Part shown: positions 6,512 to 30,838 of the stretch, in pieces | Numbering within the stretch: the stretch's first letter is position 1 | How the letters are laid out: every line of letters begins with the position of its first letter | NCBI GenBank assembly: GCA_964538225.1 | Contig: CAZIDW010000003.1 | Location: forward strand, 1 to 35,027 | Length of the DNA stretch: 35,027 nt | Source of the DNA: an uncultured Candidatus Peribacteria bacterium | GTDB lineage: Bacteria > Patescibacteriota > Gracilibacteria > UM-FILTER-43-11 | Reading direction: 5' to 3' | The notes under the pieces: model-generated | What the model was told of the DNA's origin: nothing | What the model saw: the letters and a program-made list of their open reading frames with translations, nothing else | Database searches by the model: none | Translations under genes and position numbers: made by a program

Positions 6512-6519
6512 ACCTTTTT

Positions 6520-6615
6520 AAAATAACAAATATCAAATTTTAAATATCAAATTTTAATTTAAGGTACCAAAAATTGTAATTTGTCATTTGTAATTTAAAA
6601 TTTAAAATTTGTAAT
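6520..6615. repeat. heptamer-array palindrome (NNCAAAT/ATTTGNN family), copy 1
   Basis: 6520-6609 matches the reverse complement of 30588-30677 at 82/90 positions. Confidence 0.9.
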
Positions 6616-6617
6616 TA

Positions 6618-7562
6618 GTGAAGTGTATTATACTGGCCGGCGGTTTCGCGACACGGTTGTGGCCGCTGACGGAAAATAAGGCAAAACCCCTTCTGCACCT
6701 GAAGGATAAACCGATTATCTCGCATATTGCCGACGGCCTGCCGGAGGATATGGAAATCGTTATTTCGACCAACGCGGTTTTTGAAAATGAATTTAAAAAA
6801 TGGGCGAAGGATTATAAAAACCGCCCGATTAAAATTTTTGTGGAGGATTCGTTTGACGATGAATTTAAAAAAGGGGCGTTGGGCGCCGCCGCCATGGTGA
6901 TCGGGCACGAAAAGCTGGATGAGGATTTACTGCTGATCGCCGGCGATAATTATTTCGGATTTAAAATGAAGGATTTTATTGATTCTTACCAAAATAACCC
7001 CCTGTTGGCGGCGTACGATATCCGGAATCCGGATTTGGCGAAACGGTTTGGAGTCGTGGTTGAACAGGGCGGACGTGTGGTCGAATTCCAGGAGAAACCG
7101 CAGGAGCCGAAAAGCACTTTAGTGAGTACCGGCTGTTATATTTTTCCCAAAGAAAATCTGGACGATATTGTGGAATATGCCAAAGAAAAAAATGATGATT
7201 TGGGCGGCATTTTTGAACATCTGCTTAAAAAAGGAGTGCCTGTCAGCGTTTTTTCTTTCAGGGAAAAATGGTTTGATGTGGGGTCGTTTGAGGGTTATCT
7301 GGAAGCAAATCGGGAGCTTCTGGACGAACGGGTGATCGAAAACGGTCAGGTGGAAAAAGAAGGCTCACAATTTAAGGGCGGCGTTTATTTGGGTGACCAC
7401 ACAACAATCCAAAATTCGACTTTAGAAAACGCGGTGATTTTAAAAAACTGCAAAATCATCAACTGCGTGCTGAGAAACTGCATTGTGGATGAGGGATCTG
7501 AACTTAAAAACATCGACCTGAGCCACAAGATGATACGGCAGGGTAGTAAAATACAGAAATGA
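6618..7562 (+). CDS. sugar-phosphate nucleotidyltransferase with C-terminal left-handed beta-helix
   Basis: 314 aa; ILAGGFATRLWPLT..KAKPLL, IAGDN, FQEKP, WFDVG; GTG start. Confidence 0.92.
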   Translation: MKCIILAGGFATRLWPLTENKAKPLLHLKDKPIISHIADGLPEDMEIVISTNAVFENEFKKWAKDYKNRPIKIFVEDSFDDEFKKGALGAAAMVIGHEKLDEDLLLIAGDNYFGFKMKDFIDSYQNNPLLAAYDIRNPDLAKRFGVVVEQGGRVVEFQEKPQEPKSTLVSTGCYIFPKENLDDIVEYAKEKNDDLGGIFEHLLKKGVPVSVFSFREKWFDVGSFEGYLEANRELLDERVIENGQVEKEGSQFKGGVYLGDHTTIQNSTLENAVILKNCKIINCVLRNCIVDEGSELKNIDLSHKMIRQGSKIQK

Positions 7563-12177: not shown

Positions 12178-14406
12178 ATGAACCATGTTATTATTGTGGA
12201 ATCCCCGGCCAAAGCCAGGACGCTGAAAAATTTTCTGGGCGCCAAATATAACATCAAAGCGTCCATGGGCCATGTGCGGGATCTTCCTAAAAAAGAAATG
12301 GGCATTGACATCAAAAACGGATTCAAGCCGAATTACATTATCAGCCCCGACAAGAAAAAAATCGTCAAGGAACTGAAAACGCTTGTCCATAAATATAAGA
12401 ATACGATGGTATGGCTTGCCTCTGATGAGGATCGCGAAGGGGAAAGTATCGCTTGGCATCTGGCCCACGCGCTGGATCTGAAAAAAGACCATTACAAACG
12501 CATTGCGTTCCATGAGATCACCAAGCCGGCCATTCTGAACGCGCTGGACAATCCCCGGCCGATTGATTTTAACCTGGTGCACGCACAGCAGGCCCGCCGG
12601 ATCCTGGACCGGCTGGTGGGGTACAAACTGTCCCCTTTGCTGTGGACCAAGGTCCGCGCCGGACTGAGCGCTGGCCGCGTTCAGAGCGTAGCGGTCCGCC
12701 TGGTAGTGGAGCGCGAACGGGAAATCGAAGATTTCAAACCCGATGAATACTGGAAAATCGACACGGATCTGAAAGCGAAAAAGGGCAAATTTAACGCGGA
12801 ACTCAGCGCAATCAAAGGTAAAAAAGCCAGTGTTAAAAACAAAAAAGAGGCAGGCACTGTTTTAAAAGACCTGGCCAAGACCACTTACACAGTCAAAGAC
12901 CTTGCCATTAAGGCGGCCAAACGCTATCCCGCGCCGCCATTCATCACCAGCACCCTCCAGCAGGAAGCCTCGCGCAAGCTCGGTTTTTCCGTAAAACAGA
13001 CCATGGTCGTGGCTCAGCAGCTTTACGAAGGTATGGAGCACGGAAGACACCATACGGGTCTTATTACCTATATGAGGACCGATTCTTTTAACCTTTCCAA
13101 TGAATTTTTAAAAGCGGTTCCGGGTGTCATCAAAAAAAGGTACGGTCAGGAATATGTCCTCAGCAAACCGCGCTTTTTTACCAAAAAGACCAAAGGCGCC
13201 CAGGAAGCCCATGAGGCCATTCGGCCGACTGACCCCGCTAAAACACCCGACCAGCTGAAAGCGCATTTGGACCCTAACCAATATAAATTATATAAATTGA
13301 TCTGGGAGCGCACTATCGCCTCACAGATGCCGGAAGCCAAGTTGGATGTGACGACAGTGACGGTGGAAACAGGCAATGATTACACATTGACGGCCAAAGG
13401 CCAGGTTATCAAATCCCCCGGGTTCATGAAAGTATATGTGGAAGGGACCGACCATCCGGAAGAAGCGCTGGCAAACAAAGAGCGCATCCTGCCGCCCATT
13501 GAAAAAGGTGAGGTGTGTGGACTGATCAAAATCAATGACGAGCAGAAATTCACCCAGCCACCCGCGCGTTATACCGAAGCAACCTTGGTGAAGAAGATGG
13601 AATCCGAAGGCGTCGGCCGGCCATCCACTTACGCGCCGGTGATCTCCACCATCATCCAGCGGGGTTATGTGGAAAAACAAAAGGACAAAAAGCTGTACCC
13701 GCTGGAGATCGGTTTCATTGTGAACGATTTCCTGATGAAACATTTCAGGAACATCGTCAGCTATCATTTCACAGCCGATATGGAGAAAAAACTGGATGCC
13801 GTCGCTGAAGGCAACGTGAAATGGGAACCGGTCATCGAAGACTTTTACAAACCCTTTGAAAAGACACTGGAAGAAAAAAAGAAGACCATCAAAAAAACCG
13901 ATGTGCTAAAAGAAAAGACCGATGAAAAATGTGATGTCTGCGGCGCGCCCATGATCATCAAACTGGGTCGTAACGGAAAATTCCTCAGCTGTTCCAAATA
14001 TCCGGAATGCAAAAACGCCAAACCTCTTAAAGAAGACCGGAAAAGAGAAGAAGAGCTTCAAAAGGAATTCAAAGACGAGAAATGTGAAAAATGCGGATCG
14101 CCCATGGTGGTTAAAACCGGTAAATACGGGGATTTCCTGGCCTGCTCCGCGTATCCGAAATGCAAAACCACCCGCCCGCTGGCCCATGCTTTAAACGCGG
14201 AGTGCCCGAAATGCGGCGCTAAACTGGTTGAAAAACGCACCAAGCGGGGGAAAGTTTTTTACGGCTGTTCCAGTTACCCGAAATGCGATTTTGCCACCTG
14301 GCATAAACCCATCGACGACCCCTGCCCCGTTTGTAAAGGCCTTCAGGTACAGGCAAAAAAGAACCTCATCAAATGTGAAAAATGCGGAAAGGAAACGGAG
14401 ATCTAA
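12178..14406 (+). CDS. topA: DNA topoisomerase I with C-terminal zinc ribbons
   Basis: 742 aa; IVESPAKA, D.DREGE, SAGRVQS, ITYMRTDS, EAHEAIRPT, GRPSTY, repeated C4 zinc ribbons. Confidence 0.98.
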   Translation: MNHVIIVESPAKARTLKNFLGAKYNIKASMGHVRDLPKKEMGIDIKNGFKPNYIISPDKKKIVKELKTLVHKYKNTMVWLASDEDREGESIAWHLAHALDLKKDHYKRIAFHEITKPAILNALDNPRPIDFNLVHAQQARRILDRLVGYKLSPLLWTKVRAGLSAGRVQSVAVRLVVEREREIEDFKPDEYWKIDTDLKAKKGKFNAELSAIKGKKASVKNKKEAGTVLKDLAKTTYTVKDLAIKAAKRYPAPPFITSTLQQEASRKLGFSVKQTMVVAQQLYEGMEHGRHHTGLITYMRTDSFNLSNEFLKAVPGVIKKRYGQEYVLSKPRFFTKKTKGAQEAHEAIRPTDPAKTPDQLKAHLDPNQYKLYKLIWERTIASQMPEAKLDVTTVTVETGNDYTLTAKGQVIKSPGFMKVYVEGTDHPEEALANKERILPPIEKGEVCGLIKINDEQKFTQPPARYTEATLVKKMESEGVGRPSTYAPVISTIIQRGYVEKQKDKKLYPLEIGFIVNDFLMKHFRNIVSYHFTADMEKKLDAVAEGNVKWEPVIEDFYKPFEKTLEEKKKTIKKTDVLKEKTDEKCDVCGAPMIIKLGRNGKFLSCSKYPECKNAKPLKEDRKREEELQKEFKDEKCEKCGSPMVVKTGKYGDFLACSAYPKCKTTRPLAHALNAECPKCGAKLVEKRTKRGKVFYGCSSYPKCDFATWHKPIDDPCPVCKGLQVQAKKNLIKCEKCGKETEI

Positions 14407-14437
14407 TTTCAGATTTCTGATTTCAGATTTCAAATTT
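14407..14437. repeat. TTTCAGA heptamer array directly after the topA stop
   Basis: tttcaga-tttctga-tttcaga-tttcaaa. Confidence 0.85.
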
Positions 14438-14557
14438 TTGTTGTATCGCCCGTTCTCCGTAGTATATGCTGGTGCGCACTATTTTGTTCATTGTAAATTA
14501 AGCGCAATACGCTATATACTAAAGAGGATGAATTATGTCGTCGTTTCGTTATATCGT
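14438..14557 (+). repeat. 120-bp dispersed hairpin element, copy 1
   Basis: 114/120 identical to the reverse complement of 30460-30579; identical 83-bp core. Confidence 0.95.
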
Positions 14558-14565
14558 TTAGTTCA

Positions 14566-16245
14566 ATGAGTAAAAACCTTCTGCTGAAAAAATTACTGGA
14601 ACGCAAAAAGACCAAAAGCGCGGTGCTGGACCGACTGCTTTTCGGAATCCTGGGGCTCGGCTTTCTGATGATGATCGCTTTTTTTATTTACCTGGTCTGG
14701 TTTACCCTCAGCAACCGGAGCGTTACCTATTTACTGCCCGCGGAAAAGACCGTGGCGTATTTTGAGCTGGAAGACCTGACCCTTCCCCCGCGCCTTGAAC
14801 AGCAGACGGTCTTTGACCTTTTAGGGCTCAACGTGGTGCTTGAGCAGACATTCCAGCTGACCATGGAGGATCTGAAAGGGCAATTGTCTTACGGCCGGCT
14901 GGGGCTGGCGCTCATCCAGAACACTGACGCCAAAAATAACTTAGTCCTGTTTTTCCGCACGCGCGGCCACAAACAGGCCCTGGCCTTTTTCGAAAATCTT
15001 GGCCTGGAAGGCGAAGCGCTGATGATCAGCGGGGATGATGATCTGCCGATTTATTCGTATCCGCAAAGCAAACGCTTTGCCTTCAGTTTTATCGGCCCGT
15101 ACCTTTTTATCGCTGAAAATCCTTCTACTCTGGAAAATATCCAGTCGGTGTATAACAATGAAGACCAGGACCTCAACGCGGATCCGGATTACCGGAAATC
15201 TCTGGCCAACCTTCCCCGGCAGGCATGGGGGCATGGTTATTTGGATGTGAAAGCGCTGCGCTTTGGCGATACCCATCCTCTGCGCCAGGTAACGGAACCC
15301 CTTCAGCACATCACGGACCATCTGGCGCTGAGCATCCAGAAGGAGTACAACGGGTTCCATTTCAACACACTCCTGTCGCTTGACCCTGAACTGCTCGCGC
15401 TGAAAAAAGGTTATACGGATTCGACCCGTTTCGCTTATAGTCTGGCGGATTTTTTGGGGGGTCAGCACACGGCTGTTTATATCGGCGGAGCAAACCTGAG
15501 TGATGAATGGCAGAACACGCTGGAGACCATCAGCCAGCTCAACCCGGCCTACGGCATCATCCTGGAAGGAATCATACGGGCGCAGGTAGGCCAAATCTTC
15601 GGGGAGGACGTCAGCCTGCGGAATGATATCTATCCGCTGTTCGGAGGGGAATACGCCCTGGCCTTTGAGCACCTGGAAGACGGCCTGACCGGTATCAAGC
15701 TCATCCTTAAGCACCATGACCGTTCATTCGCGAAAACCAAACTGCAAAAACTGCTGGAGGGTTTCCAGACTCTGGCCGCCCAATTCGCTCCGCGCCTTAA
15801 GGAATTCACCCTGCCGGACGGCACAGAAAGCCGGGAACTGGTGGCGGATCCGTCCCGTCTGCATGAGACAGAAGAGACGTATCAAAATTATGAGATTCAC
15901 TGCCTGAATGTCCTGAATTCTGTTTATGGGTTCTGTTACACGGTGACCGATGAGCTCATCATCATGGCCAACCACCCAGAGTCGGTCAAAGAATCCATCG
16001 ACCTGAGCATCTCTCCCCGCTTTGTCCTGTCACAATCCCAGTCCTTCCGCCAGGCGCTGAGCAACCTGAGCGCGGTGAGCGATGAGATCACATTCATCGA
16101 GTTCAGCAACCTGCATCCGCTGTTTAAAAACACGCTGGCGGGAATATACACCCAAAATCTGCTCAGCTCTTTCGAGGCGGTTGCCTGGATCAAACATTAT
16201 TTCAATGACGGGGTGAGTACGGAAGGGTATCTTTTACTGAAGTAA
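14566..16245 (+). CDS. membrane-anchored DUF3352-like protein
   Basis: 559 aa; single N-terminal TM then LLPAEKTVAY; DI.PLFGGEYALA pattern; family assignment from recall. Confidence 0.65.
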   Translation: MSKNLLLKKLLERKKTKSAVLDRLLFGILGLGFLMMIAFFIYLVWFTLSNRSVTYLLPAEKTVAYFELEDLTLPPRLEQQTVFDLLGLNVVLEQTFQLTMEDLKGQLSYGRLGLALIQNTDAKNNLVLFFRTRGHKQALAFFENLGLEGEALMISGDDDLPIYSYPQSKRFAFSFIGPYLFIAENPSTLENIQSVYNNEDQDLNADPDYRKSLANLPRQAWGHGYLDVKALRFGDTHPLRQVTEPLQHITDHLALSIQKEYNGFHFNTLLSLDPELLALKKGYTDSTRFAYSLADFLGGQHTAVYIGGANLSDEWQNTLETISQLNPAYGIILEGIIRAQVGQIFGEDVSLRNDIYPLFGGEYALAFEHLEDGLTGIKLILKHHDRSFAKTKLQKLLEGFQTLAAQFAPRLKEFTLPDGTESRELVADPSRLHETEETYQNYEIHCLNVLNSVYGFCYTVTDELIIMANHPESVKESIDLSISPRFVLSQSQSFRQALSNLSAVSDEITFIEFSNLHPLFKNTLAGIYTQNLLSSFEAVAWIKHYFNDGVSTEGYLLLK

Positions 16246-28960: not shown

Positions 28961-29847
28961 TATTTTAAATATTTAAACAGACTGAACATCAATAGCCAGA
29001 AAATCTGGCAGTAAATAATGAATATAACTTCCTGGGGGCCAAAATAACTTTGAGCCAAAACAATACCCAAGCCGACATTTAAAAATAATAAGTTGCTTTG
29101 TGCGCTGATTTTATCTTTTTTCCCTTTGATATAAATCACCATTAGCTTGGCAAAAAAATATAAAATCAAATGTGCCACAAGAACAGCCAGCCATAAGGTC
29201 TGATTTAACAGATTTGCAACCAATTCCTTATTGTAAGGAGCTAAGGCGCCAAAAAATAATAAAAATAAAATCAGCAAACTGATCAATTTGTATGATTTTT
29301 TAGTTTTTTCAATGGTCTTTTTGGCAAAATATTGGGCTGACAGGCTTAAAATAAACGGCACTGCCATCAAAACCAATAATTGCCATAAAATGGTATATAA
29401 GCTTACCTCCACTTTTTTACTGGCAAAAAAGGCCAAAAGAATTGTTATTGTAAACGGGCTAAGTAAATTGGAAAAAACTGTATTGGTTGTGGTAAGAGCC
29501 ACATTCCCTTTATATATCCTGGCCACAGCTGGCGCGGAAACCGCTGACGGCAAAAGCATGAACAAAAGGGCGCCCAATAAAAATTGAGGGAAAAAATGCC
29601 CCATGATCGGAATGCTGACCAAAGGAGCAACGACCAAAATCACCATAACCATAAAAATCTGATCCATTGGTTCTTTTAATTCATTTAACAATTTTTTCGG
29701 GTCAAGTCCCAAAAATGCCACAAGCAAAAGGCCGCCCAAAAGCCAAGTCGTAAACGGAGAAAATAATCTGCCGATCTGAGGCAGAGCCAGTGCGGCCGGA
29801 ATGGCCAATAGGGGGATTAGATTAATGGCTTGTGTTTTTACTTTCAT
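28960..29847 (-). CDS. bile acid:sodium symporter family transporter
   Basis: 295 aa multi-TM; PSAVSAP....YKGNVAL......SNLLSPF, N.GLG. Confidence 0.8.
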   Translation of the reverse strand: MKVKTQAINLIPLLAIPAALALPQIGRLFSPFTTWLLGGLLLVAFLGLDPKKLLNELKEPMDQIFMVMVILVVAPLVSIPIMGHFFPQFLLGALLFMLLPSAVSAPAVARIYKGNVALTTTNTVFSNLLSPFTITILLAFFASKKVEVSLYTILWQLLVLMAVPFILSLSAQYFAKKTIEKTKKSYKLISLLILFLLFFGALAPYNKELVANLLNQTLWLAVLVAHLILYFFAKLMVIYIKGKKDKISAQSNLLFLNVGLGIVLAQSYFGPQEVIFIIYCQIFWLLMFSLFKYLK

Positions 29848-30455
29848 AATATTCGTACTTGATTATTATCGATTTTAATTTTCCCGTCCGCGAACATCTG
29901 GACGACTTTGGGGTACCATTCCTTTTCCAATGCCTGCACTTTGTCTTTTAAGGTCTCCGGTGTGTTAGACGGCTCCACGGGGCAGGCTTTCTGGAGGACG
30001 ATGGGGCCGGTGTCCACGCCTTCGTCGAGCAGATGGATGGTCATGCCGGTTTCTTTTTCGCCCGCGTCGATAACAGCCTGATGCACGGATACATCCATTC
30101 CGCCGCCATGCTTAGGAAGTAAGCTTGGGTGGATATTGATGATGCGGTTTTTATATTTGTTCACCATTTCCGGTCCGATGATCCGCATGTAACCGCCAAG
30201 GACCAAAAGGTCGGGCTGATATTCATCTAAAATTTTCATTACCTTTTTATCAAATTCCTTCCGGCTTTTGCCGGCCTGGTCGACCATGTGGTGCGGGATG
30301 CCGGCGGCTTTGGCTTTCTCAACCGCTCCGCATTCCTTATTGGTGATGAGACAGCACAGTTCGACGTTATCTTTCAGTATTCCGGACTTTTGAGCGTCAA
30401 GAAGGGACTGAAAATTGGTGCCGTTGGTGGAAGCGAGGACAGCGACTTTGTACAT
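29844..30455 (-). CDS. purN: phosphoribosylglycinamide formyltransferase
   Basis: AVLAS..GTNFQ, LGGYMRI, INIHPSLLP, TGMTIH..DEGVDTGPI; start reassigned to ATG 30455 because the upstream ATG lies in the repeat. Confidence 0.96.
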   Translation of the reverse strand: MYKVAVLASTNGTNFQSLLDAQKSGILKDNVELCCLITNKECGAVEKAKAAGIPHHMVDQAGKSRKEFDKKVMKILDEYQPDLLVLGGYMRIIGPEMVNKYKNRIINIHPSLLPKHGGGMDVSVHQAVIDAGEKETGMTIHLLDEGVDTGPIVLQKACPVEPSNTPETLKDKVQALEKEWYPKVVQMFADGKIKIDNNQVRIL

Positions 30456-30459
30456 AGTG

Positions 30460-30579
30460 ACGAAATAACGAAATAACGACATAATTCATCCTCTTTAGTA
30501 TATAGCGTATTGCGCTTAATTTACAATGAACAAAATAGTGCGCACCAGCATATACTACAGAGAACGGACGATACAGCAA
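30460..30579 (-). repeat. 120-bp dispersed hairpin element, copy 2
   Basis: Reverse complement of 14438-14557 with 6 substitutions. Confidence 0.95.
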
Positions 30580-30587
30580 TTTTATGG

Positions 30588-30677
30588 AATTTTAAATTTT
30601 AAATTACAAATAACAAATGATAATTTTTGATATCTTCAATTAAAATTTGTCATTTAAAATTTGATATTTGTTATTTT
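30588..30677. repeat. heptamer-array palindrome (NNCAAAT/ATTTGNN family), copy 2
   Basis: Reverse complement matches 6520-6609 at 82/90. Confidence 0.9.
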
Positions 30678-30838
30678 TATTTAGGTTTGACTTACCGGAT
30701 TTTACGAATAAAATGTTATCGGTCTGTTTTTGGACTCTTGCTCACCGAATTCGGTGTGGCTGATCTTTAGACCACGGGAGCATCGCAAACCGCAAACCTG
30801 TAAGTGCAGAACTGAAAACCTACCTCAAGGAGGGGTCC

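Follow-up and report, generated by a model that had tools for sequence, protein, structure and literature searches.

Why does one hairpin-forming sequence recur, almost letter for letter, in front of two unrelated genes of the same small genome? The question is raised by a 35,027-nt stretch of DNA (the window; contig CAZIDW010000003.1) from an uncultured Candidatus Peribacteria bacterium, whose genome (G000; 1.29 Mb, 48.8% GC, 97.7% complete) is assembled in 108 contigs, designated here by C numbers. A repeat search of the window pairs positions 14406-14557 with 30460-30611, two arms of 152 nt that are 88% complementary. Comparison with related genomes indicates that the repeated element is probably a miniature, non-autonomous mobile DNA hairpin, akin to repetitive extragenic palindromic (REP) sequences and to MITEs (miniature transposable elements with inverted repeats).

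A sequence-only reading of the window had described a 120-nt unit, and its measurements hold on direct counting. Positions 14438-14557 match the reverse complement of 30460-30579 at 114 of 120 nt and contain an identical run of 83 nt (14459-14541); both copies lie in sense orientation to the next gene, and the 120-nt stretches stop 8 nt short of the start codon at 14566 and 4 nt short of that at 30455, both ATG. The proposed DUF3352-like and purN neighbours are confirmed by Pfam (DUF3352, 69.7 bits; Formyl_trans_N, 182.6 bits). The extent and number of the copies, in contrast, required revision: the inserted unit is 84 nt rather than 120 nt long (plus strand, 14449-14532; minus strand, 30485-30568), and the two window copies belong to a subfamily of eight within a family of at least 17 copies in G000. 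The heptamer array reported before each copy and the tcgttat-type 8-mers reported after it are both present, but they belong to the native flank and not to the element.

Filled and empty sites in one genus

Evidence for mobility comes from two genomes of the same genus, G001 (98% complete) and G002 (88% complete), which belong to a comparison set of 31 family genomes. At all nine loci examined, among the at least 17 copies of G000, the flanks are joined without the element in G001 and/or G002, and both comparison genomes return no match to a covariance model of the hairpin core. The empty loci of subfamily A are topA/DUF3352, purN, purQ, a gene on C8, tmk (which carries a short form in G000) and sua5 (a diverged copy); the others are the C39 locus of a third type and the C15 and C21 loci of subfamily B. 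Between topA and the DUF3352 gene, the sequences on either side of the window copy map directly next to each other in G001 and G002. With a caret marking the junction, the empty site reads TTGTTGTATCG^TTATTTTGTTATTTCG…ATG, and the filled site of G000 reads TTGTTGTATCG^CCCGTTCTCC…GAGGATGAA^TTATGTCG…ATG. The motif TTGTTGTATCG, the 'aattATG' and the tcgttat-type 8-mers are native, since the empty sites carry them without an insert. The features around the two window copies are as follows.

14404 to 14437, plus strand: native heptamer array of ATTTCAG type following the stop codon of topA, outside the element, also found at the G001 and G002 empty sites
14438 to 14448, plus strand: TTGTTGTATCG, native target motif preceding the insert, uninterrupted in G001 and G002 at topA/DUF3352
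14449 to 14532, plus strand: hairpin copy 1, subfamily A, 84 nt, without counterpart in G001 and G002, where its flanks abut
14449 to 14464, plus strand: 5' arm of copy 1, CCCGTTCTCCGTAGTA
14465 to 14516, plus strand: cargo of copy 1, 52 nt, itself a small hairpin
14517 to 14532, plus strand: 3' arm of copy 1, TACTAAAGAGGATGAA
14491 to 14520, plus strand: promoter-like TTGTAA-N18-TATACT spanning cargo and 3' arm and facing the gene, assigned solely by a consensus scan (9/12)
14490 to 14461, minus strand: mirror-image promoter-like match from the consensus scan
14533 to 14565, plus strand: native 8-mer array TTATGTCG TCGTTTCG TTATATCG ... up to the start codon, with an equivalent array in G001 and G002 in the absence of the element
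14566 to 16245, plus strand: DUF3352-family gene after copy 1, an open reading frame (ORF) matching Pfam PF11832 at 69.7 bits
30485 to 30568, minus strand: hairpin copy 2, subfamily A, 84 nt, 82/84 identical to copy 1, lacking at the purN locus of G001 and G002
30569 to 30579, minus strand: TTGCTGTATCG, native target motif, read at the same place without the element as TTGTTGTATGG in G002 and ATTGTATCG in G001
30456 to 30484, minus strand: native 8-mer array TTATGTCG TTATTTCG TTATTTCG TCACT from copy 2 to the purN ATG, 29 nt, as at the empty G002 site
29844 to 30455, minus strand: purN-like formyltransferase gene after copy 2, matching Pfam PF00551 at 182.6 bits over residues 3-185
30581 to 30684, minus strand: AAATTTT/AAATGAC-type heptamer-array hairpin, a separate repeat just upstream of copy 2, with a second unit at 6515-6618 of the window

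Arrays like the one at 14533-14565 precede ATG codons in other family genomes as well. The purN proteins of G001 and G002 start at the same MYKVAVLAS as the frame from the ATG at 30455; a longer purN ORF from the ATG at 30482, which would begin inside the array, is probably not used.

These comparisons define the junctions to the base. The empty sites of purN, purQ, tmk and sua5 have before the ATG a native tract exactly as long as the one that separates insert and ATG in G000, so the ends are fixed at …GTATCG^(C/T)CCGTTC … GATGAA^T… with no target-site duplication. No such duplication appears at any of the nine filled/empty pairs. The target of subfamily A is GTATCG^T at six of six sites (TATCA in one), entered in a single orientation throughout, and each of the four exact occurrences of TTGTTGTATCG in G000 carries the element. 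The 34-nt short form on C2 is likewise an insertion, being missing from both G001 and G002.

Three subfamilies were distinguished in G000 by DNA search, BLAST and the covariance model. In subfamily A, six copies are near full length, one has diverged (C59) and one is a short form without the inner 50 nt (C2). Subfamily B contains seven copies of 83 nt that are 81-83/83 identical, all within TTCAATN heptamer arrays, and the third type has two copies (C39 and C7); two further matches, on C37 (inside an ORF) and on C5 (weak), are doubtful. For the covariance model, 89 short-loop copies were used, and it gives 14 matches in G000 at E <= 0.001. Neither window copy is among the model's matches: 150 of 315 candidates were scored, and the 3' arm of the window copies differs at two positions. 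Each subfamily occupies its own type of short-period array. In keeping with recent bursts, the window copies agree at 82/84 positions, against an identity of only 71-84% between the coding DNA beside the copies and its counterparts in G001 and G002. Among the copies of subfamily B, two lie 301 nt apart with identical flanks on a 6.5-kb contig (C69:703-785 and 1004-1086), an arrangement suggestive of tandem duplication on the spot or of a repeat in the assembly.

Structurally, the window copies form the long interrupted stem that had been described. The sense strand of 14449-14532 has a predicted folding energy of -26.2 kcal/mol (z -3.75). The G-U pairs that were said to favour this strand are real, but their effect is small: the antisense strand still reaches -22.0 kcal/mol (z -3.59).

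A shared core in the family and in other phyla

What is conserved beyond the genus is an imperfect hairpin of about 30 nt, TCC(G/A)TTCTCCGTAGTA…TACTACGAAGGATGAA, with an apical cargo of 0 to ~75 nt. Across the family loci (fetched loci carrying the core, in the family and in other phyla, are given L numbers) the common unit is TCC(G/A)TTCTCCGTAGTA–loop–TACTACGAAGGA(T/C)GAA. Its two ends, some 16 nt apiece, are imperfect inverted repeats of one another, with G.T wobbles and a C.A mismatch that is fixed. The cargo is lineage-specific, and in several cases the unit recurs within it in reverse and in degenerate form; the variant of G010, which belongs to another genus, has only the two arms in common and a different interior. 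Distribution within the family is patchy. The covariance model finds the core in 9 of 31 genomes (E <= 0.001; 150 candidates scored per genome, so that counts are lower bounds), and the 5'-arm 15-mer with one mismatch allowed occurs in 7 of 31, compared with 0-1 matches per genome for a reversed-pattern control.

An exact two-arm pattern, searched with one genome per species, recovers at least 115 stretches inside and outside the family, where about 8 would be expected by chance according to our own arithmetic. By their record titles, these contigs are labelled as about a dozen phyla; among the matches listed are Planctomycetota (Pirellulales, Sedimentisphaerales, Phycisphaerae), Bacteroidota, Cloacimonadota, Peregrinibacteria/Peribacteria, Gracilibacteria, Saccharibacteria, Nitrospirae, Deltaproteobacteria, Elusimicrobia and Latescibacterota. 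The GC content of the host loci ranges from 34 to 62% (13 loci sampled). At L083, L065, L067 and L126, one copy is nested at the apex of another and points the same way, with three levels of nesting at L126. Positions not fixed by the search pattern are likewise conserved or covary: 50 cells changed on both sides of the stem, compared with 23 +/- 4.8 after shuffling (0 of 500 shuffles reach 50). The TCCG…TGAA of most lineages becomes GCTCC…GAAGC in a variant seen in Bacteroidota.

The surroundings of the core show two lesser tendencies. A preference for insertion at host hairpin apexes is modest: 20 of 129 sites allow 8 or more of 12 flanking pairs, versus 5.5% of mismatched controls. In other phyla, the general tie to 7-8-nt arrays is weak, with flanking arrays of period 7-8 at 6 of 114 sites compared with 8 of 570 control positions (0.75 threshold). 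Across phyla, no conserved neighbour gene emerged from the fetched loci except lineage-specific paralogues and common families. Thirteen loci labelled Phycisphaerae or Sedimentisphaerales (L079, L103, L104, L110, L111, L127, L128, L136, L148, L153, L169, L174 and L064) share one such paralogous gene family, with a longest frame of about 1050 aa. In those loci of this group whose sequence was inspected, the minimal hairpin keeps a fixed spot within an upstream region that is itself conserved, a short way ahead of an AGGAGG-like site. In G041 (L030, L036, L041, L045, L049 and L052), the minimal hairpin caps a longer stem whose arms vary by compensating changes, as in the pairs GATACTTTTTG/CAAAAAGTATC, ATCCGCTTTTG/CAAAAGCGGAT and GACCGCTTTTG/CAAAAGCGGTC.

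Two other ideas about the core were set aside. For an rRNA or plasmid origin, a 40-nt minimal copy finds no match in E. coli genomes or PLSDB plasmids; for a phage vector, IMG/VR holds a single match. Literature searches with arm 10-mers, with Peregrinibacteria intergenic repeats and with the terms miniature, palindromic, nested, hairpin and CPR (candidate phyla radiation) retrieved no description of the element, though supplements could hold one. Arm 10-mers do occur in 67 papers, 20 of which look unrelated by title and abstract; in one of them the 10-mer is part of a cloning primer. In PMC7965970, the primers of an erythromycin-resistance cassette used in Flavobacteriia genetics carry at their 3' end a 17-nt string, AACTACGAAGGATGAAA, equal to the hairpin 3' arm with its neighbours.

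Small palindromic repeats such as REP sequences, REP doublets forming hairpins (REPINs), MITEs and small dispersed repeats (SDRs) are known, and are usually species-specific and either accompanied by a recognisable transposase or left unexplained. What is unusual here is the minimal size of 30-34 nt, the base-precise junctions and a near-identical core in a dozen phyla. The clean pairs of filled and empty sites offer a sharply defined substrate for an enzyme search, whose object is either a mobilising activity of a new kind or a host enzyme that moonlights. The element also marks recent DNA exchange among uncultured lineages, and it might supply very small genomes with new promoters or 5' structures. 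It further shows that the heptamer and octamer tracts between the genes of these genomes serve as landing pads.

Mobility and the competing explanations

The sequence-only reading had left a choice between an undescribed cis-acting leader RNA and a recently mobile MITE- or REPIN-like unit that targets, or travels with, the arrays. The second alternative is favoured by the nine empty loci out of nine, the near-identical copies, the patchy presence in 9 of 31 genomes and the subfamily-specific arrays. According to this scenario, the 84-nt version would have entered the lineage of G000 in one orientation, directly after GTATCG and without duplication, at sites lying inside 8-mer tracts before start codons. 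The moving form would be a folded single strand handled in trans by a nuclease-ligase, with the ~30-nt core presumably the recognised part; an HUH-type or similar enzyme would best fit an oriented, duplication-free and hairpin-tied insertion, and none could be assigned. Any effect on downstream genes, whether through a 5' hairpin or a cargo-borne promoter, would be a by-product. Orientation and position might seem to speak for a function: of the at least 17 copies in G000, 14 of the 16 tested are followed within about 70 nt by the start of an ORF in sense orientation, with 12-67 nt between hairpin and start codon (two copies with an ORF start inside the element being left out). The sense bias is explained by the target tracts, which precede start codons in relatives without the element too. 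The uniform position before genes would thus reflect where the tracts lie, not a regulatory role.

A broader proposal can be put forward only tentatively, and we regard it as rather unlikely. The ~30-nt hairpin could be among the smallest mobile DNA units and the same in a dozen phyla because it uses a conserved host enzyme, or a widely shared one, able to cut folded single-stranded DNA, and to join it again, at the apexes of hairpins and in tracts of short repeats. Such a unit would insert without duplication, become nested within itself and take up cargo. A cargo such as that of the window copies, which resembles paired outward promoters, could rewire genes behind such tracts in candidate-phylum genomes that are poor in promoters and devoid of Shine-Dalgarno (SD) sites.

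Several observations weigh against a mobile hairpin. No mobilising enzyme was found in G000, in the family or in the fetched loci, and no long element with the same ends in G000 or the fetched loci; movement is deduced from genome comparison alone. All copies of a G000 subfamily share similar flanks, which makes copying by recombination between similar tracts possible, and five of seven subfamily-A copies run on into an identical TTATGTCG where the orthologous empty sites differ. The sense ORF close behind 14 of 16 copies is what a regulatory element would also show, as is the copy at purQ in two genera (G000 and G024). Finally, the paired changes in the stem come mostly from the Bacteroidota variant and represent few independent events, which leaves the covariation thin.

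Homology-driven copying is the main rival for the spread inside G000, although on balance it seems unlikely. It holds that the element entered a short-repeat tract once and then spread, without transposition in G000, by ectopic recombination or gene conversion through similar flanks: TTGTTGTATCG on the left and TTAYNTCG units on the right, with the neighbouring heptamer-array hairpin sometimes copied along. The common flank motifs and orientation within each subfamily would follow directly, as would the shared TTATGTCG, which the empty orthologues replace with TTATTTTG, TCATATCG or TTGTGTCG; the missing target duplication and transposase would also be expected. Furthermore, the AAATTTT-type array hairpin adjoins the element at purN and tmk in G000 and is not there in G001 and G002, and G001 has it natively at purQ. 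On the left, however, only 7-11 nt of homology are available, a very short stretch, and on the right every copy has a different second 8-mer. The copies at topA/DUF3352, C8 and C76 do without the array hairpin that other copies share. Neither a copy nested in the apex of another copy nor the arrival in many phyla, with period 7-8 arrays at so few of the sites there, is accounted for by conversion between tracts.

That the hairpin is a functional RNA or a protein-binding 5' leader controlling translation or stability, for instance by UUCUCC/GAAGGA pairing or as a conserved stem for a widespread protein, appears improbable. Such a role would explain the ORFs close behind the G000 copies and the copies at purQ in both G000 and G024, which differ in cargo. 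The fixed place before a strong AGGAGG-like site at 13 loci of the paralogous gene family of ~1000 aa (Phycisphaerae, Sedimentisphaerales), the advantage of 4 kcal/mol of the sense over the antisense fold and the stem mismatches kept across phyla point the same way. The same genes nevertheless do without the element in G001 and G002 at all nine loci, and those it precedes are unrelated (DUF3352, PurN, PurQ-like, Dtd, Sua5/YrdC, Tmk, ribosomal protein S11 and membrane proteins). The Rfam scan gave no match to a described family at the gathering threshold, either in the window or in the 15 loci scanned of about 115, and an E-value search around two copies returned chance-level hits only, away from the element. 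SD-like words are not enriched at -20 to -4 of 753 long ORFs of G000 (GGAGG 10 versus 10 in the control, AGGAG 12 versus 9), so the 'SD' that would be sequestered is probably not one. Leaders in G000 are G-poor, with an A peak at -11 from the ATG of these 753 ORFs, a composition that could reflect many leaderless or very short-leader transcripts.

Orientation, by which the leader idea was to be judged, gives a divided answer. A sense bias is present in G000 and in the family, where a gene is called no more than 300 nt away at 14 sites and lies in sense at 12 of them. In other phyla, the arrangements of neighbouring genes are close to random (++ 14, -- 10, -+ 10, +- 8, from crude ORF calls at 72 sites in loci L061-L140), and the G041 copies lie upstream of promoter-like sites or beside terminator-like stems. 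Taken with the orthologues that lack the element, these results do not bear out the leader RNA of the sequence-only reading. A CsrA-binding site was also considered, on a resemblance to a consensus from SELEX (systematic evolution of ligands by exponential enrichment), and dropped: no CsrA gene was found in G000.

Very improbable, in our estimation, is a portable promoter or operator acting at the DNA level, with the arms as a binding site and the window cargo as outward promoters. The TTGTAA-N18-TATACT match facing the gene, its mirror image on the other strand and, in the short C2 form, a flanking TTGTAT at the same spacing from the TATACT of the arm agree with it. These matches are weak (9/12), with 2 sites versus 0.7 +/- 0.9 in shuffled sequence, and the cargo that holds them varies between genomes. 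Half-sites lie 0 to ~75 nt apart in different copies, too variable for a dimeric DNA-binding protein, and the conserved asymmetry of the arms (TTCTCC versus the complement of GAAGGA) is unlike a homodimer operator.

Known mobile elements and candidate enzymes

A mobile hairpin of this kind shares several traits with the REP/REPIN elements mobilised by REP-associated tyrosine transposases (RAYTs, or TnpA-REP). As characterised by Bertels & Rainey 2011 (PMC3116915) and in PMC3733652, these are short imperfect palindromes with many intergenic copies, patchy between relatives, able to form a hairpin on either strand, non-autonomous and near-identical within a genome. The palindrome and copy number seen here are of this type (at least 17 copies in G000, hairpin z-scores of -3.6 to -3.75). 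REP sequences carry an unpaired GTAG (or CGTC) tag at one palindrome end, according to Di Nocera et al. 2013 (PMC3733652), whereas GTAG occurs here only inside the paired stem CCGTAGTA/TACTACG. The same paper describes REP families as mostly species- or genus-specific and REPs as mostly downstream of coding regions; the present core is common to many phyla and lies mainly upstream of genes in G000. Unlike in a REPtron, no RAYT gene is flanked by the element, and Y1 genes do not co-occur with it. Intergenic heptamer arrays have precedents as well, in the TAACTGA repeats of Beggiatoaceae (MacGregor 2015, PMC4679880) and the GGGAATC repeats found in Xanthomonas and Nostoc (Rehm et al. 2015, PMC4692102). 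The element lives inside such 7-8-nt arrays, but the arrays are its landing site and not the element, and they are also present at empty sites.

Palindrome-associated transposable elements (PATEs), which derive from IS200/IS605 insertion sequences (ISs) and use peel-and-paste single-strand transposition, resemble the element in oriented insertion 3' of a short target, lack of duplication and dependence on hairpins; the oriented, duplication-free insertion at GTATCG^T (six of six subfamily-A sites) corresponds to this behaviour. PATEs have separate subterminal hairpins on the left and right, whereas the two ends pair here into one stem. No cognate Y1 TnpA was identified, and targets vary between subfamilies with the same arms. 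Classical MITEs derived from DDE insertion sequences (Correia, ERIC, Nezha and the like) offer terminal inverted repeats, small size, amplification bursts and possible effects on neighbouring genes. The element differs from them in the absence of a target-site duplication at nine of nine junctions and in a minimal form of 30-34 nt, far under the usual MITE size. No parent IS with the same ends was found: all arm matches in G000 are short copies, and the fetched loci contain no long arm-bounded element.

The SDRs of Nostoc and other cyanobacteria, described by Elhai et al., are reportedly mobile, a few tens of bases long, in some cases hairpin-forming, and nested in one another and among short tandem repeats; no enzyme is known for them. 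They are alike in smallness, hairpin and nesting, and they differ in sequence and in phyla; the core described here is shared across many phyla and has variable cargo. Integron attC sites have the core sites RYYYAAC and GTTRRRY. An attC identity was rejected: when the alignment is inspected, GTT is missing from the CCA variants and RYYYAAC from both strands, and the copies are dispersed before housekeeping genes and not in cassette arrays. The element can be grouped in kind with REP/REPIN sequences, PATEs, MITEs and SDRs, yet it departs from the defining features of REP sequences, DDE-type MITEs and IS200/IS605 elements.

Among possible enzymes, the link to RAYT/IS200 proteins was rejected for now, as both RAYT-like Y1 genes of G000 are flanked by other palindromes. 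Pfam PF01797 identifies these two genes; with the NCBIfam model REP_Tyr_transpos (cut-off 80 bits), one scores 99.2 and the other 52.8. Y1 genes occur in 20 of the 31 family genomes and do not track the element: G041 has many copies and no Y1 match, and G001 and G002 have four Y1 matches each and no copies. The sole RAYT-like ORF among the scanned fetched loci (L106) is flanked by a different palindrome. On C56 of G000 (L060), the RAYT-like ORF that scores 99.2 bits, at 1417-1986, is flanked by eight copies of its own ~27-nt repeat, TGTCTCC…GGAGCCAGC, at 1182-1386 and 1965-2206, a classical REPtron-like arrangement unrelated to the element.

Cassettes of the PF05635 four-helix-bundle protein (the 23S rRNA intervening-sequence protein) were discarded as an autonomous form, as no element arms lie beside them and just two cross-phylum loci have such a gene nearby. 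This family has 11 matches in G000 (contigs C54, C6, C10, with two, C77, C37 and others), occurs in 26 of the 31 family genomes and is not represented in the window. Of six G000 copies inspected, five had inverted short-repeat arrays on both sides, each pair with its own sequence; the C37 copy is less clear.

The AAATTTT-type unit upstream of copy 2 is an array hairpin of about 100 nt found at several loci in both G000 and G001. An AAATTTT/AAATGAC-type unit also precedes element copies on C18, C92 and C2; in G001 it is native at the purQ locus and lacking at purN and tmk. Within the window, inverted pairs of heptamer arrays of the TCAGNTG, AAATTTT/AAATGAC and ATTTCAG families bracket genes or groups of genes, at 4792-4868/10131-10174, 6520-6609/30588-30677 and 10922-10956/14403-14437.

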